Counted from the first letter of the stretch, positions 4,218 through 64,000 are shown. The stretch is 64,000 nucleotides of DNA from a virus (IMGVR_UViG_3300043427_004512); one strand, 5' to 3'. Notes: generated by a model from the sequence alone, not told the origin. Numbers and translations: made by a program.

Positions 4218-5066
4218 TTAATTTTCTTTTATACTAGCAAGTAAATCCTGTAATCCTTTAAGATTATCTGGTCTGCTTTTATATGTATCTGTTTGAAATT
4301 CTACAGGTACAGGCTTATCAGGTCTCCACCCTTTATCCCAAGCCAAATTCAAAAGTTCATTATCTTTTTTGTTTCCTGAACTACCGAAAGCGGATTTAAC
4401 AAAATCCCAATCAAATCCTTCAACAGAGGTTTTAACTTTAGGAGTACCTCCTCGAACAATGTCATAACCCTTACTATATCCTACACCTGCTGCAGTATAA
4501 ACCGCGGCATCTTTACCTAAATTCTTGGCTCCTTGGACTACTGCTTGTTTTTTTAATTGTTTTTTTGCAAGTTCTTTTCCTGCACGAATTGAAGCATCTT
4601 GTCCAAGTTTCTTCATTCCATCTTCTATGAGTTTTCTATACTGAGCAACTTTTTTAACAACCTCCTCTTCTACTTGTGACAACTTGGTCCCGAATGATAA
4701 TTTTTTCCCGATTTCTGCCAAAGCTTTGCTTCCCCAACCAGATAAACCGATTTTTACAGCCAACCCTCCCACTAAAGGAATTGCACTAAATAATCCAACT
4801 AAACCAGCAGTTTTTTTATCACCATCATCCCAGTACAATTTAGCGTCAGCTAAACCAATTCCAATAGATATTAGAGGACCAATGACTGGAACGAACGATG
4901 TACCAATTTGGTGAATAGTGAGTATTTCATGGGGCGATAAACCTGTTTGTTCAAAAGATTTTCTAATAACGTCTGGCTTTTGATAATCATACCCACCTGG
5001 TGGTGCTAACGTTATTGGTTGCTCAGAAACTATTTTATATTGTCTTTCAGAAATAATAATTTTCAT
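4218..5066 (-). CDS. leader-B protein (MKIIISERQYKIVSEQ) with glycine-zipper hydrophobic core
   Basis: leader plus GTSFVPVIGPLISIGIGLA...LVGLFSAIPLVGGLAVKIGLSGWG. Confidence 0.55.
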   Translation of the reverse strand: MKIIISERQYKIVSEQPITLAPPGGYDYQKPDVIRKSFEQTGLSPHEILTIHQIGTSFVPVIGPLISIGIGLADAKLYWDDGDKKTAGLVGLFSAIPLVGGLAVKIGLSGWGSKALAEIGKKLSFGTKLSQVEEEVVKKVAQYRKLIEDGMKKLGQDASIRAGKELAKKQLKKQAVVQGAKNLGKDAAVYTAAGVGYSKGYDIVRGGTPKVKTSVEGFDWDFVKSAFGSSGNKKDNELLNLAWDKGWRPDKPVPVEFQTDTYKSRPDNLKGLQDLLASIKEN

Positions 5067-5080
5067 AATCTATAAATACG

Positions 5081-6180: not shown

Positions 6181-7155
6181 TTAATAGTAAAGGTAATTCC
6201 AAGTCTCTCTGCCGACAATACCATCTTTACCTTTTAATCCGCTTTTAATTTGCATTTGTTTAACTGCCTTTCGTGTTTTAGGACCATAGATTCCATCACA
6301 TGATTGTTCGTTTTCACCACAATTTCCGGGATTTGAATTATCGTCTTTTAACTCGAACTGAACTTTTTTAACCAAGTCTCCACTACTTCCATTTCCTAAT
6401 ATATGTGTACCATCTAAAATCTGTTGTTCTGTAGTTGCATATCCTTTAGCTCTTGTTGTTTGCTCGGTTTTATAATCTCCACTCAAAACCGGTTTTGTTC
6501 CGTCCCAAGTCCATTGGAGTATCCTAACATACCCTCCGTCAGCCATATCTTTTTTAGCAATCTTAACCTTCCCATCATTTAGAAAAGCTATAATGTGTTC
6601 ATTATTTTTGAGTAGTAATTTAGAATCTCCTTCTTTTTTGGTTAAACTTTCTTTCGAAAAATCAGGTGGAAATCCATTGGACTCAAGGTATTGTTTTACT
6701 TTTGTCCAATTATCAACATTTGGGCTTGCTGCGGGGGCTGCGACGGTTTTTGGAGACAACTTGAAATTTTTGTAAAGATGGTCTTCCAAAGTATACGGTA
6801 CTTTTAATTCTTTAAGTTTTTCCAAAACCTTTTTCATGTCATTTTTGTTGTTGAATCCAAAACCAATTATACTTCCGAGCTCAAATTCACCTCTAATCAT
6901 TTCATCAAACGAACCATATCCTGTTTTTTTATCCTTAAATGTATCATTTAATTTATAAAATTCTTCGGGAGTTTTAATTAATGAAAGTCCGCTGATAATA
7001 TCTTTTGGACGAGTTCCTCCCCATGATTCACCTTTAGCACCTTTTATCATGTATTGATAAGCTTTCGATATATTATCTGTTTGGGCCTGTTCAGAAATTA
7101 CTTTACTAACTAAACGAACCAACTCTGATTCAGTTAATCTTACAACTTTTTTCAT
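6181..7155 (-). CDS. leader-A protein (MKKVVRLTESELVRLVSKVISEQ) with C-terminal peptidoglycan-binding (PG_binding_1-like) domain
   Basis: leader; C-terminus KTRKAVKQMQIKSGLKGKDGIVGRETWNYL matches the PG-binding 1 motif (DGI.G..T). Confidence 0.6.
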   Translation of the reverse strand: MKKVVRLTESELVRLVSKVISEQAQTDNISKAYQYMIKGAKGESWGGTRPKDIISGLSLIKTPEEFYKLNDTFKDKKTGYGSFDEMIRGEFELGSIIGFGFNNKNDMKKVLEKLKELKVPYTLEDHLYKNFKLSPKTVAAPAASPNVDNWTKVKQYLESNGFPPDFSKESLTKKEGDSKLLLKNNEHIIAFLNDGKVKIAKKDMADGGYVRILQWTWDGTKPVLSGDYKTEQTTRAKGYATTEQQILDGTHILGNGSSGDLVKKVQFELKDDNSNPGNCGENEQSCDGIYGPKTRKAVKQMQIKSGLKGKDGIVGRETWNYLYY

Positions 7156-8355: not shown

Positions 8356-8715
8356 TTAATCCATTCTTTTCATTCTGAGTTTAACAGGACCATCTTGTTG
8401 ATACCTGTCCCAATATCCTTTACCAGGACTTCTGTCTCCCTTGAAACCTTTTGCACCAAACGACCACTTGTTTTCAGGGAAATCTGTATCTGTTTGAGAA
8501 ATATATTCTTCAAAATCCTCAGGACCAAATTCAATTTCTTCATCATAATCAAATTCACCTTTTACTGGTGAGTCCATTTCATCATACCATCTATCCTTGT
8601 GTCCCAAATAGCCCTTTTTTCTCATGGGTAATTCTTTATCCAATTCTGACTCTTTAACTATTTTTCTAACCAATCTGACCAGCTCAGATTCAGTTAATCT
8701 TACAACTTTTTTCAT
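8356..8715 (-). CDS. leader-A protein (MKKVVRLTESELVRLVRKIVKES)
   Basis: first 17 aa identical to 6181..7155, with synonymous nucleotide differences. Confidence 0.6.
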   Translation of the reverse strand: MKKVVRLTESELVRLVRKIVKESELDKELPMRKKGYLGHKDRWYDEMDSPVKGEFDYDEEIEFGPEDFEEYISQTDTDFPENKWSFGAKGFKGDRSPGKGYWDRYQQDGPVKLRMKRMD

Positions 8716-8765: not shown

Positions 8766-9044
8766 TTATTCATATGAACTCAGGACATCATCAACCATAT
8801 CAAAAAAATCATCCTTTTCATCCTGACTTATATCTTCGTTAAATTCTACCATCCTTGCCAATTGTTTAACCTGTCCCAACATATCATAAAGTTCATCAGA
8901 GCCAGGTTCCAAAGATTCCATTTGACTAACAATTACTTCCAACTCCACTATATAATCTTGTAAGTTATCAAACCTTTCCTCGTTTATTAATCTATATATT
9001 ATTCCCTTCAAATCAGATTCAGTCAACCTTATAACTTTTTTCAT
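8766..9044 (-). CDS. leader-A protein (MKKVIRLTESDLKGIIYRLINEE), acidic cargo
   Basis: family-A leader. Confidence 0.55.
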   Translation of the reverse strand: MKKVIRLTESDLKGIIYRLINEERFDNLQDYIVELEVIVSQMESLEPGSDELYDMLGQVKQLARMVEFNEDISQDEKDDFFDMVDDVLSSYE

Positions 9045-9441: not shown

Positions 9442-9747
9442 TTAACAATTTTTTCTATGATTATAATAATATTCAGTAAGGTCAACATAAAATAGGTCCT
9501 TCAATTCTTCAAAAACACCATTATAGTCAAAACCATCAATTAAATAATATGACTCATGAATATCATCCATTAAATTATGATAAAATAGGGGTTCGTATTG
9601 TTCAAAGGAATCATAAACACAAGGGTCCATATACTTTAATGTTTCCATAAAAGTTTTTTTAACCAACTTGTATCTCCTTATTATCCATAACCTGTTAGAA
9701 GAATTAAGTATTCTTTCATATTGGTCTTCTGTTATGACATATTTCAT
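9442..9747 (-). CDS. leader-B variant protein (MKYVITEDQYERIL..)
   Basis: internal Met at 9747; the track N-extension is hydrophobic junk. Confidence 0.45.
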   Translation of the reverse strand: MKYVITEDQYERILNSSNRLWIIRRYKLVKKTFMETLKYMDPCVYDSFEQYEPLFYHNLMDDIHESYYLIDGFDYNGVFEELKDLFYVDLTEYYYNHRKNC

Positions 9748-14624: not shown

Positions 14625-15188
14625 ATGGAAGAAATTTTAAAAAAATTAATTGAAAGACTTGTATTACCGAAATATCCTATTATAAAGGATTTTGCTATTA
14701 CAGAAGTAAATAGAAAAGTTGGAATACATAATTACGAGGCAAAGAATTTTTATAGTGTTCATTATTTTGTTGTGGATGATTTGAATTATGAAAACAATAG
14801 GAAAATAAAAGAAGATATAACATCTGATACTGTAAAATTATTTAAGGCTTTAGGAATTGAAAAATATGATGTACATGAAAGTGTTATGTTTGCTAGTTAC
14901 CAAGTTAATAAAATGGTAAACTCATTAGAAAAATTAATTGGAAATGTTATGCCACCGAAATACCCTTGGATAAAGAATTTTGAGGTTTTTGGAAATGAAG
15001 ATTTCGGAGAGAATTTTTATACAATTCATTACTATGTTGATGAAAATGAATATAAGAAAAAAAACAGCAGTGAAATCAACCGCATTATATCCGAAACTAG
15101 GAATTTATACAGTAGTCTCGGACCGAGTGAAAATGATTTTTTAAAAGATATATCATTCGAGAATTATGGAGAATGGTTTAAGAATTAA
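14625..15188 (+). CDS. family-D protein 1 (MEEILKKLIERLVLPKYPIIKDF..), internal duplication
   Basis: ATG at 14625 (the track start at 14601 is TTG); the LPKYP motif occurs twice. Confidence 0.55.
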   Translation: MEEILKKLIERLVLPKYPIIKDFAITEVNRKVGIHNYEAKNFYSVHYFVVDDLNYENNRKIKEDITSDTVKLFKALGIEKYDVHESVMFASYQVNKMVNSLEKLIGNVMPPKYPWIKNFEVFGNEDFGENFYTIHYYVDENEYKKKNSSEINRIISETRNLYSSLGPSENDFLKDISFENYGEWFKN

Positions 15189-15200
15189 AAAAATATTGTG

Positions 15201-15506
15201 ATGATGAAAGATTCGTTAGATAAGTTAATTAAAAAATTAGTTCTCCCTAAGTATCCCATTATAAAGGATTACGAAATAACGGTAGATGTTTACAAACCCA
15301 CATTACCTTTAGCTGGAGGTAAGAAGAAAATTGCGTCAGAACATTATACAGTTAGTTATGATTTATCTTCTGATGAGGATGGTAATTTTACTGTCACTGA
15401 TGACCTCGGTAAAATAGATAAACTAACGGTGACTTTGTTTAAAATGCTCGGACCTGAACATTATCAGAAGTTGAACAACGTTGATTTTTATAGTTATAAG
15501 GATTAG
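15201..15506 (+). CDS. family-D protein 2 (MMKDSLDKLIKKLVLPKYPIIKDY..)
   Basis: paralog of the previous gene. Confidence 0.55.
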   Translation: MMKDSLDKLIKKLVLPKYPIIKDYEITVDVYKPTLPLAGGKKKIASEHYTVSYDLSSDEDGNFTVTDDLGKIDKLTVTLFKMLGPEHYQKLNNVDFYSYKD

Positions 15507-15510
15507 ATAA

Positions 15511-15610
15511 GATTATAGAGTAATGTGTAGTTAGAGAACGAATGGAGATGACCCCGAACGATAGTGAGGTGTATTGGTCATCGGAGTGAGTGAACTATAC
15601 TACACATTAC
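15511..15610. other. stem-loop element copy B (stem taatgtgtagt / actacacatta; core ccgaacgatagtgagg, gtgaact)
   Basis: shares a 13-nt 5' end and internal motifs with copy A, but the stem sequence is different and still complementary. Confidence 0.5.
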
Positions 15611-15630
15611 AAAATATTATATTTATTAAT

Positions 15631-15939
15631 ATGAAGGAAACACTAACGAAATTAATAAACAAAATAATAATACGTAAATACAGGGATATTGCACCCGAAC
15701 TTAGTTTTGAGGTAATGCCAGCTAGTTTGGAATATGATTCTATGGGTGTTGGAGAGAATACCTATCTTGTAAGATTTAAGTTTACTGATGAGAATGATAA
15801 ATTCCCCTCGATTGTTGAGAAACCTTTGGTTAAGGACACGATATTTGTAATGAAGTCTGTTGGATTAAAAGGTGTACGACACAAACAGAGTAATATGACT
15901 TACTTTAGAGGTTATGTGGATATAATTGGAAATAATTAA
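15631..15939 (+). CDS. family-D protein 3 (MKETLTKLINKIIIRKY..)
   Basis: ATG at 15631 preceded by aaatatttattaat, identical to the sequence upstream of 14625. Confidence 0.5.
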   Translation: MKETLTKLINKIIIRKYRDIAPELSFEVMPASLEYDSMGVGENTYLVRFKFTDENDKFPSIVEKPLVKDTIFVMKSVGLKGVRHKQSNMTYFRGYVDIIGNN

Positions 15940-15961
15940 ATTTCACGTTATTTATAGTTAT

Positions 15962-16237
15962 ATGAACGTTGTCTCATTACAGAAAATAATTAATAAGTTA
16001 GTACTCCCTAAGTATGATTGGATAGTATCCTATGAGATAGATTCTTTCTATTATCGTCCGTTTGAGAATTTTAGAGTAGTATATTATGTAGATTCCCCCG
16101 ACATAACAGATAAAGAGGATGAGGTTAAGAAAGTAGAGAAAATGACTGAGAATTTGTTTGAAGTTCTTGGACCTGTGGGTACTCAGGTATTACGAGGAGT
16201 TGTATTTGAATACGATGAGGATAGAGTGAAGAACTAA
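15962..16237 (+). CDS. family-D protein 4 (MNVVSLQKIINKLVLPKYDW..)
   Basis: paralog; internal Met start. Confidence 0.5.
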   Translation: MNVVSLQKIINKLVLPKYDWIVSYEIDSFYYRPFENFRVVYYVDSPDITDKEDEVKKVEKMTENLFEVLGPVGTQVLRGVVFEYDEDRVKN

Positions 16238-16239
16238 CT

Positions 16240-16614
16240 CTAAAATTTTGTCAAAGCATAACTCGTGACTGAAAAAGAATAAGGAGGTAATCCCAAAATC
16301 TTGGTAATATTTCTTACTTTTCTCTCGTTTGATTCGAGGTGGTCAGAGAAATCTGTATCAGTTTCATCGTATTTTAATTTGATTTGGTACATCCCCTGAA
16401 GTTCATTCCATATTACCTCGACATCGAAAACATGTGGTAAAGACATTTTGGACAACAATCTTTTAATAATGTTGTATGTTGATTCTGAATACTCGACATT
16501 CTCATATTGAGCCAATTCGTTAATATTCATCATCTGTTTAATCCTGTCTATGTTTTCCTGTAAGTTCATGTTTATAAATATATTTGTAAGATAATTATAT
16601 GGTATGAAATACAT
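16240..16614 (-). CDS. leader-C protein (MNLQENIDRIKQMMNINE..)
   Basis: internal Met restores the MNLQENI leader. Confidence 0.5.
   Translation of the reverse strand: MYFIPYNYLTNIFINMNLQENIDRIKQMMNINELAQYENVEYSESTYNIIKRLLSKMSLPHVFDVEVIWNELQGMYQIKLKYDETDTDFSDHLESNERKVRNITKILGLPPYSFSVTSYALTKF
16579..16586 (+). promoter_or_regulatory. -7 box TATATTTG 17 nt upstream of the ATG at 16604
   Basis: matches the TAnnTTTG consensus. Confidence 0.3.
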
Positions 16615-16984
16615 TATATCTGAAAGACAATATCAATTAATAAGTGAAACTTTGGACACGAGTTCTTTAGCACTTAGAAGAAGATTATCTTTAATCGAAA
16701 AATTAATCGACGAGGAATTAGCAGAGATTCATAAAGAAGGTGGTAGTGAATTCACGGACCTAATCGAATTCATGAACATTGTAATTAATATCGTTGTGGA
16801 TAAAGTTTTTACGGAAACAGGTGGAGAAGAAGAATTAGACCAAGAAGAATTAAAAGAATTTATTGAAGAGCATTATGGTGATTACATACTTTCTATGTTC
16901 CCACATGATTTGGAAGGCGATGAAGAGGATGATGAAGACTATGAAGAAGATGAAGACTATGAAGAAGAGGATGATGAATTCTAA
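16604..16984 (+). CDS. leader-B protein (MKYIISERQYQLISE) with poly-acidic C-terminal tail
   Basis: leader; DE-rich tail containing an 18-nt tandem repeat gatgaagactatgaagaa x2. Confidence 0.55.
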   Translation: MKYIISERQYQLISETLDTSSLALRRRLSLIEKLIDEELAEIHKEGGSEFTDLIEFMNIVINIVVDKVFTETGGEEELDQEELKEFIEEHYGDYILSMFPHDLEGDEEDDEDYEEDEDYEEEDDEF

Positions 16985-17034
16985 ATGAATACTTTTTAAT
17001 TGAATATAAAATAATATTAATTCTAAAATAACCA

Positions 17035-17421
17035 ATGCGTTATATTATTACACAATCTCAGTTTCATACTTTGATATACAAATATCTTGATGGTTTATTT
17101 GCTAATGAAGATTTCAGAAAAGAGATTAATCCATATGTAAAAGACGGAAACACTTATAGTATAGACATGTTCACAGATAAGGGAAAAGAATTAATGAGTT
17201 ATTTTTGGTATGGTCCTGGCGAATATGATGATGGAACAGAACATAATGGAATCGGTAATTTACATATACATCACGAATTAGTGGATTCATTAAGAAGTAA
17301 ATTAACCGTAAGAGAATCTAAGATATTGGACATTATTGCGGATTGGGTTAGTGAAAAATTTAATTCTGACGTAGATGATACGACTATATATCCGAAGAAT
17401 CCAAAGCCCACAAATTATTAA
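17035..17421 (+). CDS. leader-B-like protein (MRYIITQSQFHTLIYKYL)
   Basis: degenerate family-B N-terminus. Confidence 0.45.
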   Translation: MRYIITQSQFHTLIYKYLDGLFANEDFRKEINPYVKDGNTYSIDMFTDKGKELMSYFWYGPGEYDDGTEHNGIGNLHIHHELVDSLRSKLTVRESKILDIIADWVSEKFNSDVDDTTIYPKNPKPTNY

Positions 17422-17898
17422 TTATCCAGGTGTCATGTTGTCCAAGTAATATTCCTCTATCTCATCAGAGAAATAATCTTCAACATATTTTGTAATGTAT
17501 GGTTCGATTTTCTCTCTCATTTTTAATATTTCTTCGTAATTTAGGTCTCCTGAAGAATTAGAAATTTCTCTTATAACATTAAAAATAATTCTTGACATAT
17601 ACTCATCATAACTGTTAAAAGACCATGGTACAAGATGTTCGTAAGTATCTCTAACATATCTCGGCAAAAAATCAAATAATCTTCTTTTGATGTATAGTGG
17701 GATTTCTGATTCTGTGACTAAGTCGTTATTTGTGCCACAGTGTGGACAGATGGGTAAAGACTTCTTTCCCTTGTGTATTGTCTGTGTAAACTTCTTTTTA
17801 CAATTGAAACATTTAATCCATTTTTCTCCTGACTCTTTTTCTTCGAGAGAAACTCCCATCACTTCCTTAATCCTTGATATGTTTTCTTGTAAGTTCAT
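17422..17898 (-). CDS. leader-C protein (MNLQENISRIKEVMGVSLEE) with zinc ribbon (CFNCKKKF..CPHCG)
   Basis: internal Met gives the leader and an ATGA overlap with the upstream gene; the track N-extension is spurious. Confidence 0.55.
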   Translation of the reverse strand: MNLQENISRIKEVMGVSLEEKESGEKWIKCFNCKKKFTQTIHKGKKSLPICPHCGTNNDLVTESEIPLYIKRRLFDFLPRYVRDTYEHLVPWSFNSYDEYMSRIIFNVIREISNSSGDLNYEEILKMREKIEPYITKYVEDYFSDEIEEYYLDNMTPG

Positions 17899-18371
17899 TT
17901 CTTTTTCTTTTTTACACAGTTTGGATATTTTTTCCCGAACATTGTCTTCATCCCTTTTTGTGTATATCCTTTCCAACACCTTTCAGTTATTTCTGACTCG
18001 TTCTGTTCCTGTCTTCCTGAATCTGACATATATTCAGAACAAGTTGTTTTATATACTTCAATCAAATACTGACCAAACATAATCTCAGTCATACTTCTTA
18101 AATAATCCAAAACATCACTGATGTAATCCTGCTCAAATATGTCATCATCCACATCATCCAATAATTTATCAATCGCATAATCAATTACAGCAACAGCATA
18201 TTCATATTCATCACCAAAATCGTCACACAGAGTTGGATATTCCAATTCTGCTCTGTTTATATAAGCTTTCAGTGTCTCACGGTTAGCTCTTCTTCTAATT
18301 GAACTAGGAACAGTGGATTCATTTATACCCATCACGTCCTTAATCCTTGATATGTTTTCTTGTAAATTCAT
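17895..18371 (-). CDS. leader-C protein; cargo paralogous to 2562..2903
   Basis: MNLQENISRIKDVMGINES followed by the IRRRANRETL..YEYAVAVIDYAID domain. Confidence 0.6.
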   Translation of the reverse strand: MNLQENISRIKDVMGINESTVPSSIRRRANRETLKAYINRAELEYPTLCDDFGDEYEYAVAVIDYAIDKLLDDVDDDIFEQDYISDVLDYLRSMTEIMFGQYLIEVYKTTCSEYMSDSGRQEQNESEITERCWKGYTQKGMKTMFGKKYPNCVKKKKK

Positions 18372-18949
18372 TTCATTAACTCTAATGCATGTTCGAGACT
18401 TTTAACCCCAAATTTACGTGCTTGAACCAAACGTCTACCCTTGGATGAGTCTTTGTCCCAACATAGAATACACGGACGTTTTTTATTTAACTCATCTTCC
18501 CAATGGTTGTATTGTGTTGTATAGTCCCATATTTTTTTAGTATTTCCCCATCCTTTGGAATATAACCAACCTCCAACATTTCCTCCTGTTCTATCCATTC
18601 CGTTTCTACAATGAATTAAAGTATAACCCTTATCCAAAATTGAATTTACTTTGCTTTGGTCGTTTTCTGCGTCCAAGAGGAAGAAATTACATCCCAAAGA
18701 CTCACAAATCTTTTTTTCCTCGGCTACAGACAAACCTTTACTGTCTCCTCCATCTGCGTTAAACCTAATTATGTTTTTGATTTTGTTAACTCTAATTGTA
18801 TTTTTCAGAACCTCTGAAGGTAATTCACCTGAGCGGAAATTGTTTTTTCCTAATGGGATTTGATGTAAGTTAGTCTGAGTAATACTCGATTGTTCTTTGA
18901 TAAGACCCATGACCTCCTTGATTCTATTTAAGTTTTCAGTTAAGTTCAT
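18368..18949 (-). CDS. leader-C dual-specificity/tyrosine protein phosphatase
   Basis: MNLTENLNRIKEVMG leader; active-site loop HCRNGMDRTG (CX5R). Confidence 0.7.
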   Translation of the reverse strand: MNLTENLNRIKEVMGLIKEQSSITQTNLHQIPLGKNNFRSGELPSEVLKNTIRVNKIKNIIRFNADGGDSKGLSVAEEKKICESLGCNFFLLDAENDQSKVNSILDKGYTLIHCRNGMDRTGGNVGGWLYSKGWGNTKKIWDYTTQYNHWEDELNKKRPCILCWDKDSSKGRRLVQARKFGVKSLEHALELMK

Positions 18950-18954
18950 CTTGA

Positions 18955-19239
18955 TTATAAATTGTCAATAGATTTTATAAGTTTATGACATTTTTGGGAC
19001 ACTTTACCTTTTTCATGGTCTGTTATTGATATTTTGACTTTGTTGTATTTGATTTCAATATCAGGATGATGGTCTTGTTTTTCCGCTATTTTAGCAACTT
19101 TATTAACAAAATCTATGGATTGGTCAAAATTTTTAAATTCAAATGTTTTTTCCAACTTTTTTTCAGAGTCGCCCCATCCTTTAGATTCACTCAAAGTCAT
19201 CACTTCCTTAATCCTTTGTATGTTTTCTTTTAGGTTCAT
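18955..19239 (-). CDS. leader-C pterin-4a-carbinolamine dehydratase-like protein
   Basis: MNLKENIQRIKEVM leader; EKQDHHPDIEIKYNKVKISITDH matches the PCD/DCoH signature. Confidence 0.65.
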   Translation of the reverse strand: MNLKENIQRIKEVMTLSESKGWGDSEKKLEKTFEFKNFDQSIDFVNKVAKIAEKQDHHPDIEIKYNKVKISITDHEKGKVSQKCHKLIKSIDNL

Positions 19240-19907
19240 TACTTTTTAAGTTCTGATGATATTTTAACCGCAATGTCTGCGTCTTTTTTTAAATCTTGAA
19301 CAAGCGTATTAAAATTTTGTAAAGGCTCTTTGAAATATTTCAACTTTGGTGTTTTATTTACTTCTTGAATTAATTGAGAAAGTTTTTTTGATACTTCAGT
19401 TAAACTTTCAGCTAATTCTCCTCCTAAAAATTTGGCAAGTACTAAAAGAAATAAGTATTGAAATTTATTCTTGAATAGAAAAAATTTGGTTCTATCAACT
19501 ATCCCCAACTTTTGACCAATAATCATAATTTCCGCTGGTGTATACTTTAAAACTTGTTTTATTCCTGTTCTAACCATAATTGGTAATGAGTTTCCCGCAA
19601 TTGGAATAAAAGTTGCGCCAAGAGTTATGAAGGCGAGTGTCGCATTTTCTATTCTTTCTTCATCAGTTTTACTGAAAAAATACCTAACAATGTAAGAAAT
19701 AGTGTGGATAATATCTATACCAGCAGATACGAGATTACCAATTCCAGGTATTCCATCAATCGCAGCTGAAACAAGGTCAATTGTGTCATCAAGACCAATT
19801 GAAGGTAAATCTTCATGTTTAGTCCTTGGTTGAAATCTACTGTCAGGAATTTGTTCGTTAATTCCCATGACTTCCTTTATCCTTTGTATATTTTCTTGTA
19901 AGTTCAC
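19239..19907 (-). CDS. leader-C protein with glycine-zipper membrane segment; GTG start
   Basis: leader MNLQENIQRIKEVMGINEQ encoded from the GTG at 19905-19907; IDGIPGIGNLVSAGIDIIHT. Confidence 0.5.
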   Translation of the reverse strand: MNLQENIQRIKEVMGINEQIPDSRFQPRTKHEDLPSIGLDDTIDLVSAAIDGIPGIGNLVSAGIDIIHTISYIVRYFFSKTDEERIENATLAFITLGATFIPIAGNSLPIMVRTGIKQVLKYTPAEIMIIGQKLGIVDRTKFFLFKNKFQYLFLLVLAKFLGGELAESLTEVSKKLSQLIQEVNKTPKLKYFKEPLQNFNTLVQDLKKDADIAVKISSELKK

Positions 19908-19962
19908 AGATTATAAATACAAAAGAAAAAACAATTTTTTCAAGTACTATTGGAATTAATCT

Positions 19963-22611: not shown

Positions 22612-24300
22612 TTAGATGTATCGATATCGAGTTGCGTTATAGTTTTGTAAAACTTGAGAATCATCTAATGAATTTCCATAAAACAAAGTGTATCCTATTT
22701 GTCCTGGAAAAAACTCAGTCCCCGATATACTCGTACCAATTAAAACATTTTGAACTGGGTCTCTAAATCCTTTTATTCCTCCGGCACCAGCTTCAAGAAC
22801 ACCATTCACATAAAGAAGAGCACCTGCACTAAATTGGTCGGATACAATTGCTAAATTTGTCCAACTTGTAGTTGCCGGGACAGTGGTTTCTCCAGAATAA
22901 AAATTTCCGCCTATCAAGATTGAAACACCCCATTTATTTGTACTAGTTTTACTAATACTAAATAACCCATCATCTCCCACATTAAATCCAACTGAATTGA
23001 CAATTTGATGAATATTATTATCCGTTGCTCCTGTATCTCTAACCCATATCTGAATAGAACTGCTTGATGTAACTGAAGGGTCGGATAGAAAATTAACATA
23101 ATCATCGACACCATCAAAGTTGAAAACTCCTCCTGAATCGCTCGAAAATGTTGGAGAGCCTACCAATGTACCTCCTGAAAAAGTACCACTCAAATCTATC
23201 CACCGTGTACCGGTTCTTGGATAACTAATAATACTACCCGGGTCAAATTGTCCGTATATAAAATCATTAATTGAGTTCGAAATATCTTGAACTGTACTAT
23301 TACTAATGATTCCCATGGTAAAACAAACCCATTGGTCGTTGTTTGCCCCCAAACTAAATGTTCCAGGATTCGCCGTTCCTGATAGAGTTTGATAAAGATA
23401 GGCAGCTGCGGTAGTCCCTTGAGTAGCGGATGGTGAACCGATTAAAGTATATCCTGATGGTGGTGTCGCAGTTCCCACTAAATCATCGATAAATACCCAA
23501 GGAACAATCATTGCACCATCTAAGTTTTGGACAAGAGAGGGTGGGTCAGGAGCTCCTGTCGTTGCATTTGCATAAGTTAAACCATTTATGGGTACTGTAA
23601 AACTCACATTTCTGAACGCAGCAACTAAAGTCACATATTGACCGGCAGATGGTGGACTAATGACGACTTCACTGTCAGCAAAACTACTTTGTATGATTTT
23701 ATACGATAATCTATACCTTGTCGCAGTTGCTAAGACACCAGTACCTCCTGATATGTTTATATACCCTAATGTTAGTGGCATTGCAACTGCATTATCATCC
23801 GCATAAGTACCAACAACAACCATATCCAACCTTGTTAAATTAAGAGAAGAAATATCAATTGTTGTTGTATTTGCACTACCCACAAAACCTACGAACTCGA
23901 CATCTGTAAAAACACTTGCAGATGTCCAATACCCATTATTAGTAAGCCAAAGTACCGCTTCTGTTCCCCCTGTAAAAGTTTGAGGAGTATTATTGACCCG
24001 TGAAACCGATTGAGCCAAATTTACCAAACCTGTTTGGTTTTGCCCTTCTGTTCTGTAAAACCCTAATTGAGCCGTGGATGGAATAACAGGTGTTGGTTGA
24101 GTACTTGCAGTTAATGATTGTCCTATTACATAACCCAACTCTTCATCAGGACCCATCCAAAATCTTATTCCATTCGTATTCGTTATATTGTAAAATCCAT
24201 AATCAAAAGTAGTTGCAGTACCTATCATTAGGTTTCCTACCTTGTAAGCCTCAGGAATCGATGTTCCTGTCCAATAAGCAATAGGAGTAGATGTTGGCAT
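22612..24300 (-). CDS. LamG domain fibre-like structural protein, 562 aa
   Basis: FNFDGVDDYVNF...LFYGNSLDDSQVLQNY LamG_3 signature; T/S/G-rich. Confidence 0.6.
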   Translation of the reverse strand: MPTSTPIAYWTGTSIPEAYKVGNLMIGTATTFDYGFYNITNTNGIRFWMGPDEELGYVIGQSLTASTQPTPVIPSTAQLGFYRTEGQNQTGLVNLAQSVSRVNNTPQTFTGGTEAVLWLTNNGYWTSASVFTDVEFVGFVGSANTTTIDISSLNLTRLDMVVVGTYADDNAVAMPLTLGYINISGGTGVLATATRYRLSYKIIQSSFADSEVVISPPSAGQYVTLVAAFRNVSFTVPINGLTYANATTGAPDPPSLVQNLDGAMIVPWVFIDDLVGTATPPSGYTLIGSPSATQGTTAAAYLYQTLSGTANPGTFSLGANNDQWVCFTMGIISNSTVQDISNSINDFIYGQFDPGSIISYPRTGTRWIDLSGTFSGGTLVGSPTFSSDSGGVFNFDGVDDYVNFLSDPSVTSSSSIQIWVRDTGATDNNIHQIVNSVGFNVGDDGLFSISKTSTNKWGVSILIGGNFYSGETTVPATTSWTNLAIVSDQFSAGALLYVNGVLEAGAGGIKGFRDPVQNVLIGTSISGTEFFPGQIGYTLFYGNSLDDSQVLQNYNATRYRYI

Positions 24301-43458: not shown

Positions 43459-43486
43459 GGGGCGTCAAAAACGTCCCTTTTTTTAT
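43459..43486 (+). terminator. rho-independent terminator (GGGGCG-tcaaaaa-CGTCCC plus T9)
   Basis: read from the sequence. Confidence 0.6.
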
Positions 43487-43496
43487 ATTTATACTT

Positions 43497-62002: not shown

Positions 62003-64000
62003 TTATTGCGATACTTTGGAAATATTTTCTGTTTTTGTGATTCTTATTGTGTTATTTGCCCAATTATTTACCAAAGGGTTATGTGTAATAACAAATATTT
62101 TTTCAAAATATTCTCTCATTTTTGTGAAGAATTCACCAACCATTTCCAAGTTTTCATTACTAATTTTTCCGAACACTTCATCCCAAACAATGATATTAGG
62201 TTTAGGTAATGAACAGACTTTACTAAGAACTGCACGTAGAGCCATTGCCGCAATAGTTCTCTCATAGCCAGAACCAGATGTCATAAGTTTTTCTATACCT
62301 GTACTATTATCAATCATTATGAATTCAACTTCATTTTTGTCATTGATTCTAATCTCCAAATTGAAATAACAAGAATCTTGAAGTAGTCTTTGAAGTTCTG
62401 AGTTTATAATCGGCATCATGTTTTTCATGATTAGTTTTGAGATTCCGTTCTTGCCAAATATATCCAAATAAATTTTATAAATTTTTTCTTTCTGTGATTC
62501 TTCTGAGATTTTTAAAATAAATTCATTGTTTCTAATAATTCTCTCTTGTGAGTTTGATACGCTAATTTGGTTTGAAGTAATTATTCTTTCATATCCCCTT
62601 TTTTCATCAATCAATTCGTCTATTCTCAAATTAGCTTTCATAAGTTGAGCATCGACTTCTTTATTTTTCTTAATTTTTTCTTGGACTTCTTCGTATCGTC
62701 TTTTTTTATCTTTGAGTTGATTGATTTTCATTTCGTATGAGTCCAATGTTGCATCATACTTTTCTTTTATCAACTTATTTTTTTCATACTCGTCGAAGTC
62801 CCTCTTCAGTTTTGTGTATGATTTCTCTTTTATTTCAAGGTCTTCCCAGTTTTTGGATAGTTCAAATACCTTATTTTCCCAACTTCCTAACTCGTCAATT
62901 TTTTTCTTTGTTAAAGTTGCCTCCATCAATTTAATACCACAGTGTTCACACTTTATCCCACCTCCAAAGTCCTTAACCAGTTGTTCAATTTCCTCAACTT
63001 TGTTTTGAGATAAAATTAACTCACCATTAACTTTTCTCATAGACTCTTTAATCTCATCATGTTTGTCTTCATGATAAAACTCAGTTGGTTCAACAACTTT
63101 TGTTTCTTTGATTTTGAATTTTATATCTTCAATTTTGAAGTTGAAATCTTTAATATCATTTTCTAACACGACAGGATTCAGGATAATCAACTCTTGCTCC
63201 AAATCATTAAACTTGGATTTGAGAAGATTCTCTTTATATTCTTGTCCCTTCTGAAGTCTTAAATCAACGTCTTTAATGTTATTTTCCGCATCGGAGATTT
63301 CTTTCTTCAAAGACTTTATAGACTCTTCGAGTTCTGAAATTTCCTGTCTCAATAATTCACTATTGTAAAGATTAGAGAGCATAGACTTTGAGAACTGAGA
63401 ATATAATTCTTTTGCAACTTCTTCTTTTCTCTTTAAAAACTCCAAACCCAAAAATCTCGAAAGAACCTGTCCCCTTGCAGTAGGTTTAGAATCCAACAAC
63501 TCTTCCAAGTTCGAAGCTGTTGTTAAAATAGTCATCAAGAAGTCATCCATAGTCCCTATGGATTTTTTTATGAATTCTTCAGTTTCTCTTCTTTGCTCTC
63601 CTGTAAAGTTTTGTAATTGACCGTCAGAAAGTTTTTTGAAAAAATCAAGTTCAGTTTTTACATTCCACTCACCTTGTTTAGATTTTTTTCTTTCTAATTG
63701 ACGAACAATTATATAATCCTCCCCATCAATTTCTATTTCACCTTTAACCGAAACTTTATTCTTATCCGTGAATCTATTGAATATTTCTTCTGCCTTACTA
63801 GTTTTTGTTGTCGTATTGAAAAACAAAAACATCAATAGGTCTACAGATAGTACAGTCTTCCCTCCGAAGTTAGGTGGGTCTGACTCGACAACAGTAATTC
63901 CATTACACTTTTCGAAATCTACCACTTGGTTTTCACCATATGAAAGAAAATTTGAAAATTCAATTTTTTTGATATACCATCTTTTAAATGGGGTTATATC
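62003..64000 (-). CDS. gp46/SbcC/Rad50-like recombination ATPase (5' end beyond the window)
   Basis: reading frame stays open upstream to 64000 (..KIEFSNFLSYGENQVVDFEKCNGITVVESDPPNFGGKT); coiled coil with CEHCGIKL hook; Walker B IIVWDE; the track start is a GTG. Confidence 0.65.
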   Translation of the reverse strand, partial: DITPFKRWYIKKIEFSNFLSYGENQVVDFEKCNGITVVESDPPNFGGKTVLSVDLLMFLFFNTTTKTSKAEEIFNRFTDKNKVSVKGEIEIDGEDYIIVRQLERKKSKQGEWNVKTELDFFKKLSDGQLQNFTGEQRRETEEFIKKSIGTMDDFLMTILTTASNLEELLDSKPTARGQVLSRFLGLEFLKRKEEVAKELYSQFSKSMLSNLYNSELLRQEISELEESIKSLKKEISDAENNIKDVDLRLQKGQEYKENLLKSKFNDLEQELIILNPVVLENDIKDFNFKIEDIKFKIKETKVVEPTEFYHEDKHDEIKESMRKVNGELILSQNKVEEIEQLVKDFGGGIKCEHCGIKLMEATLTKKKIDELGSWENKVFELSKNWEDLEIKEKSYTKLKRDFDEYEKNKLIKEKYDATLDSYEMKINQLKDKKRRYEEVQEKIKKNKEVDAQLMKANLRIDELIDEKRGYERIITSNQISVSNSQERIIRNNEFILKISEESQKEKIYKIYLDIFGKNGISKLIMKNMMPIINSELQRLLQDSCYFNLEIRINDKNEVEFIMIDNSTGIEKLMTSGSGYERTIAAMALRAVLSKVCSLPKPNIIVWDEVFGKISNENLEMVGEFFTKMREYFEKIFVITHNPLVNNWANNTIRITKTENISKVSQ

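Follow-up and report, generated by a model that had tools for sequence, protein, structure and literature searches.

Within a 64,000-nucleotide (nt) stretch of DNA from a virus (IMGVR_UViG_3300043427_004512), which as a whole we refer to as the window, lies a group of six genes (positions 16240-19907, minus strand) whose protein products begin with nearly the same short peptide, referred to here as leader C, and then continue into bodies as different as a predicted phosphatase and a predicted pterin enzyme. The question raised by this locus is why one peptide should be placed in front of such different proteins. We consider it likely that leader C is a capsid-targeting propeptide of the kind known from bacteriophage T4, which would dock its cargo on the core of the prohead and be cut by a protease of the S77 family, the cargo then being ejected into the next host.

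The initial annotation of the region described five abutting or overlapping genes with a common leader, and the consensus (M/V)NL(Q/K/T)EN(I/L)xRIK(E/D)VM is indeed present at each of these open reading frames (ORFs; genes 1-5 in Table 1). However, the count was too low, since a six-frame motif search found a sixth copy, MNLQENIDRIKQMMNINE, which begins at 16569 and opens a gene that had been missed (gene 6, 16569-16240); the consensus of all six is (M/V)NLxENxxRIKxxM. Two plus-strand genes lie between gene 6 and the others. A degenerate DNA pattern for the leader gave six matches in the window and none in 100 shuffled sequences. The coordinates of the five adjoining ORFs proved to be correct: genes 1 and 2 overlap by 1 nt at 19239 (TAATG), genes 3 and 4 as well as genes 4 and 5 overlap in ATGA (18371-18368 and 17898-17895, respectively), and the remaining junction is a gap of 5 nt (18955/18949). 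Both of the start sites that had been proposed in place of the automatic calls also hold. Gene 1 retains its leader only with the GTG start at 19907, which has a stop codon directly upstream and is also present in three independent metagenome contigs, the next in-frame ATG being Met14. In gene 5 the leader methionine at 17898 lies within the ATGA overlap, and the Joint Genome Institute (JGI) call on one contig is 158 amino acids (aa); the 185-aa form, with its spurious 27-aa N-terminal extension, is an artefact of a first-start rule.

The leader is modular. Its pattern occurs in at least 120 IMG/VR contigs, and 185 unique tagged proteins, from about 1.1 Mb of related loci, represent 62 or more cargo clusters that are unrelated to one another. 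By Pfam the tagged cargo includes glucosaminidase, PG_binding_1, ART-PolyVal, acetyltransferase, HD and P-loop kinase proteins, and by eye many ParB-like (DGxHR) and HExxH proteins. Cargo is also found behind differing leaders, as is the case for the gene 3 phosphatase, the gene 1 family and the pterin-4a-carbinolamine dehydratase (PCD) of gene 2; with the cargo in place of the leader as the starting point of the search, the families of the phosphatase and of gene 1 (the latter with 79 representative homologs) were each found behind at least six N-terminal leaders, most of which end in [LIVM]-x-E-Q before the conserved domain. A local hidden Markov model (HMM) search recovered looser variants of the leader (MKLQENI.., ..RVKELMG, ..RMKSMM..) and a second class, C', which reads MNLQE[ST]IRRILREE. 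In the AlphaFold2 (AF2) models of genes 1 and 3 the leader is in a helix, followed by a low-confidence linker.

Moreover, the leader is restricted to viruses. In a scan of 185,579 species genomes the pattern matched a single stretch, on a contig of 3.3 kb. A profile of 40 aa made from the leader retrieved from the protein database only fragments of up to 70 aa without informative names, full-text literature searches with leader strings gave no match, and neither did a megablast comparison of 24 kb of the window with phages. The sole match in a species genome (locus L124, 970-1011, contig CAZYEM010000367.1) had been binned into an uncultured Bacteroides metagenome-assembled genome; its gene, which starts in an ATGA overlap, is a true member of the family (MNLQENIDRIKEMMEGKDAYVS.., as in locus L060), and the contig is probably a mis-binned phage fragment.

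Leader C is selected as a peptide, because synonymous sites vary while the residues are kept and the DNA upstream of the leaders is not conserved. In 96 distinct leader DNAs synonymous choice is free (AAC/AAT 70/26, TTA/CTA 55/33, AGA/AGG 48/45, GGA/GGT/GGG 33/22/20), where the invariance of residues 1-14 in this set is imposed by the search pattern and residues 15-20 are unconstrained.

The end of the leader is as regular as its beginning. In T4 the prohead protease gp21 cleaves after L/I-X-E (PMC9026906), and the 10-residue N-terminal capsid-targeting sequence (CTS) of the internal protein IPIII is both necessary and sufficient for packaging, with separate residues for targeting and for processing (PMC9026906, PMC5694885, PMC3012670). 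The first Glu after Met14 of leader C is at residues 17-19 in 101 of 105 unique leader proteins, and the residue two before that Glu, P3, is I, L or V in 100 of the 105, whereas only 9.1% of control ORFs (n = 2267) have the motif at that place. All six leader-C genes of the window have [LIV]-x-E at the end of the leader, and this junction looks like a prohead-protease site of the gp21 type.

A protease of this type is encoded in contigs that carry the leader. With T4 gp16 to gp24 (from NC_000866) as phmmer queries, the leader loci gave matches to the portal protein gp20 (E 1e-25), the protease gp21 (E 1e-15; 8 loci), the capsid protein gp23 (E 5e-27) and the tail sheath protein gp18 (E 4e-30). 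One of these loci, L027, has a protease (Pfam Peptidase_S77, 77 bits against a cutoff of 27), an acidic scaffold and a capsid protein in that order; these are followed, on the opposite strand, by a gene with leader C and by a homolog of PCD whose leader belongs to another class, B. In the capsid protein, SYLINE|AAV aligns with the known site of T4 gp23, SFLTE|AEI. A scan with the tail of the scaffold gave 119 further head loci, with gp21 in 83 and gp23 in 75; a predicted capsid maturation site, LINE|A, is present in every matched capsid protein of this set, and NL[IL]E|S is found in the scaffold at a distance of 20 residues from the C-terminus. Leader-C genes and a scaffold with the tail motif occur together on five contigs, two of which are 287 and 309 kb in length, with the features 70-190 kb apart.

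The core of the leader also provides a link to the assembling head. The motif R[IMVL][KS][EDKQSG][MLV]M was found in 411,670 ORF residues in 102 leader contexts and at 11 other places; two of the 11 are leader variants and nine are at extreme protein C-termini, specifically those of five scaffolds (ENPQFSRIKEMMRKIK, ..KRMKDLMTKIK), three prohead proteases (..DRMKKLMGRLDTFLSK) and a 169-aa protein of locus L072 (..FEQVNRIKKLML). With a broader expression and 812,540 residues, 168 of 174 matches were a leader, a scaffold tail or a protease tail. The short peptide in which scaffold and protease end is also carried N-terminally by dozens of non-structural cargo proteins, which suggests that leader core and tails may bind one and the same site of the prohead; the propeptides of gp21 have already been suspected of targeting that enzyme (PMC9026906). 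In locus L034 the C-terminus of a 283-aa protein is a near-complete copy of the leader (...TLKENIMRIKRLMLL), and the near-complete copies at extreme C-termini that are listed in Table 1 (for example ...EEEDNTLKENIMRIKRLMLL, after a Pro/Glu-rich linker) are such that the tag seems to be functional at either end of a protein. Copies of the C' leader (ESIRRILREE) are also found between the modules of multi-module ORFs (..NLQESIRRILREE..), which resemble fusions of tagged genes, or polyproteins whose linkers are protease sites; this position would fit a unit made of tag and cleavage site.

We propose that the six genes would be co-produced late in infection and that the amphipathic helix of residues 2-14, with its core R-I-K-E-M-M, would dock each protein on the scaffolding core or inner shell of the prohead, at a site which, judging from the motif in common, would be that of the C-terminal tails of scaffold and prohead protease. 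A Peptidase_S77 enzyme of the gp21 family would then cut after the Glu of [LIV]-x-E, at residues 17-20, as proposed because of the motif in the leader and the site in the capsid protein, and the mature cargo would be freed inside the head. By analogy with T4, the cargo would finally be ejected with the DNA into the next host, where it would act before any phage gene is expressed. The delivered set would comprise a phosphatase with the fold of protein tyrosine phosphatases (PTP), a PCD/DCoH enzyme, a zinc-ribbon protein, an all-helical protein and two others, the products of genes 4 and 6. That these proteins are leader-tagged and possibly injected cargo had been suggested in the initial annotation, and this idea now has strong indirect support, because the gp21-type motif, the T4-like head genes, the S77 protease and the core common to scaffold and protease tails have been added to it. 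The cargo repertoire also parallels that of virion-delivered polyvalent proteins (PMC5512222).

Several observations weigh against this proposal. Head genes, protease and scaffold are all absent from the 64-kb window, an exact 41-mer of which had no match in IMG/VR, and we infer the T4-like affiliation of its genome. Although leader genes and head genes share genomes, the linkage is not local: a leader-C gene lies within the locus in only one of the 119 head-module loci, and local linkage was rejected on this count. The leader itself shows no similarity, by inspection, to the T4 CTS MKTYQEFIAE, which defines the T-even family only, and its 20-aa consensus found no match by tblastn in 50,697 records of cultured phages. 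At the cleavage motif, P3 is not I, L or V in 5 of the 105 leader proteins and the first Glu is beyond residue 19 in 4, while in gene 5 the site is shifted (LEE, residues 18-20). The docking argument does not extend to the leaders of classes B and D, which lack the RIKEMM core, and the protease tail of one subclade, SLDLMKKL, has only D-L-M-x-K in common with the scaffold tail. Finally, a scan for sigma-70 promoters and terminators gave no excess over shuffled sequences, so that no such signal delimits the operon.

What else could a short amphipathic helix with a flexible linker do for its cargo? It might not be cleaved at all and serve as a docking or oligomerisation helix for a different hub, such as the tail or baseplate, a host-takeover complex or a chaperone, for which the DnaJ protein encoded in the window would be an example. 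The distance of most leader genes from head genes would agree with this, as would the peptidoglycan-binding or hydrolase domains of some cargo, which are typical also of tail-associated lysins. However, we consider an uncleaved helix unlikely, as it leaves unexplained the near-constant [LIV]-x-E at a fixed distance, the confinement of the core motif, outside the leader, to the C-termini of scaffold and prohead protease, both components of the prohead core, and the leader copies between fused modules. A role at the level of the nucleic acid, as the boundary of a recombination cassette (as proposed for the internal-protein loci of T-even phages) and/or as an A-rich start region independent of a Shine-Dalgarno sequence, is very unlikely in our view. 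It is true that the six leaders of the window are very alike as DNA, that a Shine-Dalgarno sequence is found at none of the six genes and that one cargo behind differing leaders implies frequent exchange. Yet across the 96 leader DNAs it is the amino acids that are kept, with synonymous sites left free, and the motif recurs as a peptide at C-termini and inside ORFs, where a function in the start region is impossible; cassette exchange, for its part, is compatible with a capsid-targeting sequence and does not replace it.

Export by a dedicated transporter, out of the cell or to the periplasm, for instance through a double-glycine leader and a peptidase-containing ATP-binding cassette (ABC) exporter, is more improbable still. 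One leader on many cargos does resemble the leader systems of bacteriocins and of ribosomally synthesised and post-translationally modified peptides (RiPPs), and the peptidoglycan-binding domains on some of the cargo and the phosphatase homologs would need access to the periplasm. The junction, however, is [LIV]-x-E with no Gly-Gly motif, the leader is hydrophilic, unlike a Sec or Tat signal, neither a transporter nor a C39 peptidase is among the first 25 of the 35-40 protein families of the window, and the cargo consists of folded enzymes, 100-500 aa in length, among which are kinases that act in the cytoplasm and an ADP-ribosyltransferase. A common N-terminus could also be a functionless remnant of tandem duplication, which would agree with the adjacency of the genes and with the frequency of tandem paralogs in the window (as at 14625-16234), but beyond residue ~20 the six proteins are unrelated, with differing Pfam families and folds, and the modularity of the leader, across its 62 or more cargo clusters and 120 or more contigs, contradicts such an origin, so that we regard it as having a close to negligible chance of being correct.

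A capsid-targeting propeptide would place leader C in a kind of system that is known from T-even phages. As with the CTS of the T4 proteins IPI, IPII, IPIII and Alt, cleaved by gp21, it is a short N-terminal peptide on unrelated proteins with an L/I-x-E type of end (PMC9026906, PMC3012670, PMC5694885), head genes of the gp20/gp21/gp22/gp23 type are found in related leader-bearing contigs as in T4, and both systems have a putatively host-modifying cargo that is diverse and exchangeable between related phages. The T4 CTS is 10 residues long, whereas the leader has 17-20, and the present phages differ further from T4 in having at least 62 cargo families, several leader classes in one genome (C, C', B and D) and the leader core on the C-termini of scaffold and protease as well. 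Neither a PTP-fold phosphatase nor PCD is among the T4 head proteins in PMC9026906 and PMC5694885. In the giant phages phiKZ, 201phi2-1 and SPN3US many head-internal proteins, including ejection and inner-body proteins, are cut after Glu by a diverged gp21 homolog (such as the proteases gp175 and gp245), and some of their paralogs have identical N-termini that were suggested to be CTS-like (PMC5694885); many of the leader contigs, at 270-330 kb, are also large. However, the phiKZ type is cleaved after S/A/G-x-E, has propeptides of mostly more than 100 residues and differs strongly from T4 in its capsid and portal proteins, while here the motif is [LIV]-x-E after ~18 residues, as in T4. The polyvalent proteins (PMC5512222) overlap with the tagged cargo in their effector toolkit (ART-PolyVal, ParB-like proteins, zincin peptidases, peptidoglycan hydrolases and kinases), and some of the tagged proteins are likewise multi-module; in polyvalent proteins, though, a single chain carries many domains and is presumed to be cleaved by its own metallopeptidase, whereas here most proteins have a single domain and a tag each, and the predicted cutter is the prohead protease. 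The GG or GA end of double-glycine/peptidase-ABC leaders is absent here.

Compared with the T-even phages, the leader has another sequence and a greater length and belongs to a clade that is distant, uncultured and in part jumbo. The cargos differ in their number and their enzymatic nature, several tag classes are present per genome, and the tag is common to scaffold and protease tails and is used N-terminally, C-terminally and between modules. More tentatively, it is possible that this AT-rich, distantly T4-like clade of aquatic phages loads dozens of enzymes by means of portable tags, of which xRIKEMMx would double as the prohead anchor of scaffold and maturation protease and let cargo mimic the scaffold tail, and thus has a natural programmable system of packaging and injection, in which the coexisting tag classes might address different sites, copy numbers or orders of ejection. 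If our proposal is correct, hypothetical genes of widespread uncultured phages could be sorted by a sequence rule into those for virion-borne proteins that act in the first seconds of infection, a list that would hold PTP-fold phosphatases, PCD/DCoH proteins, kinases, ADP-ribosyltransferases, ParB-like and zincin-like proteins and cell-wall hydrolases. Two questions on the assembly of the T4 head, namely what a CTS binds and how the protease is targeted, would have a testable answer in the motif that the leader has in common with the tails of scaffold and protease, and short tags of this kind could serve for engineered protein delivery by phages.

Among the cargos, gene 3 had been taken for a tyrosine or dual-specificity phosphatase. 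The P-loop HCRNGMDRTG is present (residues 113-122, nt 18613-18584), and the H, C, G, D, R, T and G of HCxxGxDRTG, among them the catalytic Cys and Arg, are invariant in 19 sequences (gene 3 and 18 homologs), one homolog having a precomputed DSPc match. The AF2 model has a predicted local distance difference test (pLDDT) score of 82, and its top 50 Foldseek matches in the Protein Data Bank (PDB) are all Cys-PTP-fold phosphatases, with E values down to 3e-5 and a Foldseek probability of 1.0. They include the atypical dual-specificity phosphatases Siw14, plant PFA-DSP1, DUF442, TpbA, PTPMT1 and laforin, which gene 3 resembles in fold and in the HCx5R(S/T) P-loop and from which it differs in that identity is 10-20% and many of its homologs have a peptidoglycan-binding-like insert. 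Because of the invariant P-loop, the model and the fold matches, the placing of gene 3 among Cys-based phosphatases of the PTP fold is a supported prediction. The more specific part of the earlier name fares less well, since gene 3 is below every Pfam cutoff (best, Y_phosphatase3 with 16 bits against 22.2; DSPc with 12.2 against 33.5) and its substrate need not be phosphotyrosine; several of the structures nearest to it act on non-protein phosphates. No conserved general-acid Asp is identifiable among the gene 3 homologs, the Asp in LLDAENDQ being variable. Most of the homologs (P0120-P0134) carry the peptidoglycan-binding-like segment, ..KDGVDG..GP.T..A.., between leader and catalytic domain, and this segment hints at a periplasmic or cell-wall-associated substrate.

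For gene 2 the earlier assignment to PCD/DCoH, as a prediction, is confirmed. The Pfam profile Pterin_4a matches with an E value of 1.9e-23 and 82.8 bits, above the cutoff of 26, and the signature EKQDHHPDIEI occupies residues 53-63, with HHP at residues 57-59 and a third His, His75, in TDHEKG (residues 73-78). The match to human PCBD2 (PDB 4c45; E 1.2e-13) aligns HHP and the third His, the counterparts of which we take to be the catalytic residues of PCD, and this alignment sets in at residue 13, where the leader ends. PCD homologs are present in nine related loci, where the L027 copy adjoins head genes and follows a different leader (MRIIITEDQ). No aromatic amino-acid hydroxylase is among the first 25 of the 35 protein families listed for the window.

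The cargo of gene 1 is an all-helical domain with the motif DDxxDxxSAxIDGIPGIGNLxSxGIDxxHxxSY (nt 19790-19692). Its AF2 model (pLDDT 84) has the leader helix at residues 2-12, disorder at 13-37 and then a helical bundle, for which the PDB holds no significant fold match (best E 0.12); weak matches to ClyA-like proteins and designed helical bundles were dismissed. The hydropathy of the protein peaks at 1.2-1.5, where a membrane span is usually taken to begin at ~1.6, and its identity as a membrane protein is thus unsupported. Gene 4 combines an N-terminal SSIRRR motif with a C-terminal motif, CWKGYTQKGMKTMFGKKYPNCV (nt 17978-17913), whose pattern CW.GY...G.K...GK.[YV]PNCV matches hypothetical proteins of T4-like cyanophages, with ~80% DNA identity in Bellamy, S-SRM01 and SynMITS9220M01, and also PHROGs 9737 and 727. 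Several tagged proteins of related loci likewise end in this motif (one is encoded at L027 7822-8475). Gene 5 has a CxxC...CxxC zinc ribbon (nt 17811-17737) and a C-terminal module, which in locus L077 are fused behind a ParB-like module. Gene 6 matched no Pfam family and no PHROG. A tandem family on the plus strand at 14625-16234, with five copies of a domain of ~95 residues in four genes (consensus ..L.KLI.KLVLPKYP.IK.FEI...LFK.LGP..), likewise has no Pfam or PHROG match, and a relationship of gene 6 to this family is unsupported (BLASTP E 5.7, hhalign E 0.09).

The phage of the window is linked indirectly to the leader-bearing clade by an identical leader and by cargo in common, as genes 4 and 5 are 81% identical to proteins of locus L077 and the PCD of gene 2 is 68% identical to a protein of locus L008. 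The best matches of its SbcC-like protein and of the L027 capsid protein are the same, namely Microcystis phage Mel-JY01 and LR756508. On the same strand as the leader operon and 2.7 kb upstream of it, an ORF of 562 aa (22612-24300, minus strand) has 210 C-terminal residues that match virion structural proteins, in the T4-like cyanophages S-PM2 and S-RSM4 and in Flavobacterium phage immuto. An extension of the contig (L126) carries an SbcD/SbcC pair and a primase-like gene. The SbcC-like ORF of the window (62003-63925, minus strand) is incomplete in the ORF list, its true start being upstream, and the protein has 792 aa on related contigs, where Metallophos (SbcD-like) and primase-like genes precede the SbcC-like gene and where Pyr_excise (T4 DenV-like), DUF6576 and a sigma-70 r2/r4 factor follow it.

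Table 1. Leader-bearing genes of the window, leader copies elsewhere in proteins of related loci, and sites of the upstream element TATTTATA(A). A vertical bar marks the predicted leader end.
Feature	Coordinates	Strand	Description
Gene 1	19239-19907	-	222 aa, GTG start; leader residues 1-18 (nt 19907-19854), end INE|Q
Gene 2	18955-19239	-	94 aa; leader residues 1-18 (nt 19239-19186), end LSE|S; Pterin_4a cargo
Gene 3	18368-18949	-	193 aa; leader residues 1-19 (nt 18949-18893), end IKE|Q; predicted PTP-fold cargo
Gene 4	17895-18371	-	158 aa; leader residues 1-18 (nt 18371-18318), end INE|S
Gene 5	17422-17898	-	158 aa; leader to LEE|K, residues 18-20 (nt 17898-17839)
Gene 6	16240-16569	-	109 aa; leader residues 1-18 (nt 16569-16516), end INE|L
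Class B leader genes between genes 5 and 6 (two)	16604-16984, 17035-17421 (span 16604-17421)	+	MKYIISERQY.., MRYIITQSQF..; class pattern MK[YI]II[ST]E.Q[YLF]..[LI]
Class B leader gene	9442-9747	-	class pattern as above
Class B leader gene	4218-5066	-	class pattern as above
Class D leader gene	8356-8715	-	class pattern MKKV[VI]RLTES[ED]L..[LI][VI].K[IV][IV].E
Class D leader gene	6181-7155	-	class pattern as above
Class D leader gene	8766-9044	-	class pattern as above
C-terminal leader copy	L034 9410-10261	-	near-complete, at extreme C-terminus
C-terminal leader copy	L034 10757-11254	-	near-complete, at extreme C-terminus
C-terminal leader copy	L072, 169-aa ORF		near-complete, at extreme C-terminus
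Internal C' leader	L032		ORF of 315 aa
Internal C' leader	L040 8712		ORF of 333 aa
Internal C' leader	L111 11467		ORF of 426 aa
Internal C' leader	L029
Internal C' leader	L056
Internal C' leader	L061
Internal C' leader	L110
TATTTATA(A) site	19912-19919	-
TATTTATA(A) site	16573-16580	-
TATTTATA(A) site	5071-5078	-
TATTTATA(A) site	15949-15956	+
TATTTATA(A) site	43486-43493	+

Together with the six class C genes, four genes with a class B leader (resembling MKYIITESQY) and three with a class D leader (resembling MKKVVRLTESEL) bring the tagged genes of the window to at least 13. In related contigs the class B leader is present on dozens of unrelated proteins and often ends in [LI]-x-E, and the phosphatase, the gene 1 family, PCD and a GLHDTSWEN family carry either leader B or leader C, depending on the phage. 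The class D leader is also found elsewhere on homologs of gene 1; in the window, one of its genes (6181-7155) encodes a 324-aa endolysin-like protein with PG_binding_1, the leader of which ends in VISE|Q.

In several operons the start codon of the first gene is preceded, at a distance of 3-5 nt, by the element TATTTATA(A); the two leader-C genes that open transcription units are among these. A phage promoter with very short 5' leaders is one possible explanation, an element of the start region in a host poor in Shine-Dalgarno sequences another. The accessory load of the window is unusual for a phage, comprising DnaJ (with its Cys-rich and C-terminal domains), an SPFH/Band_7 protein and GmhA-like and HldE-like heptose enzymes, together with a cysteine-dioxygenase-like cupin, NUDIX, thioredoxin and glutaredoxin proteins and several DNA methyltransferases.

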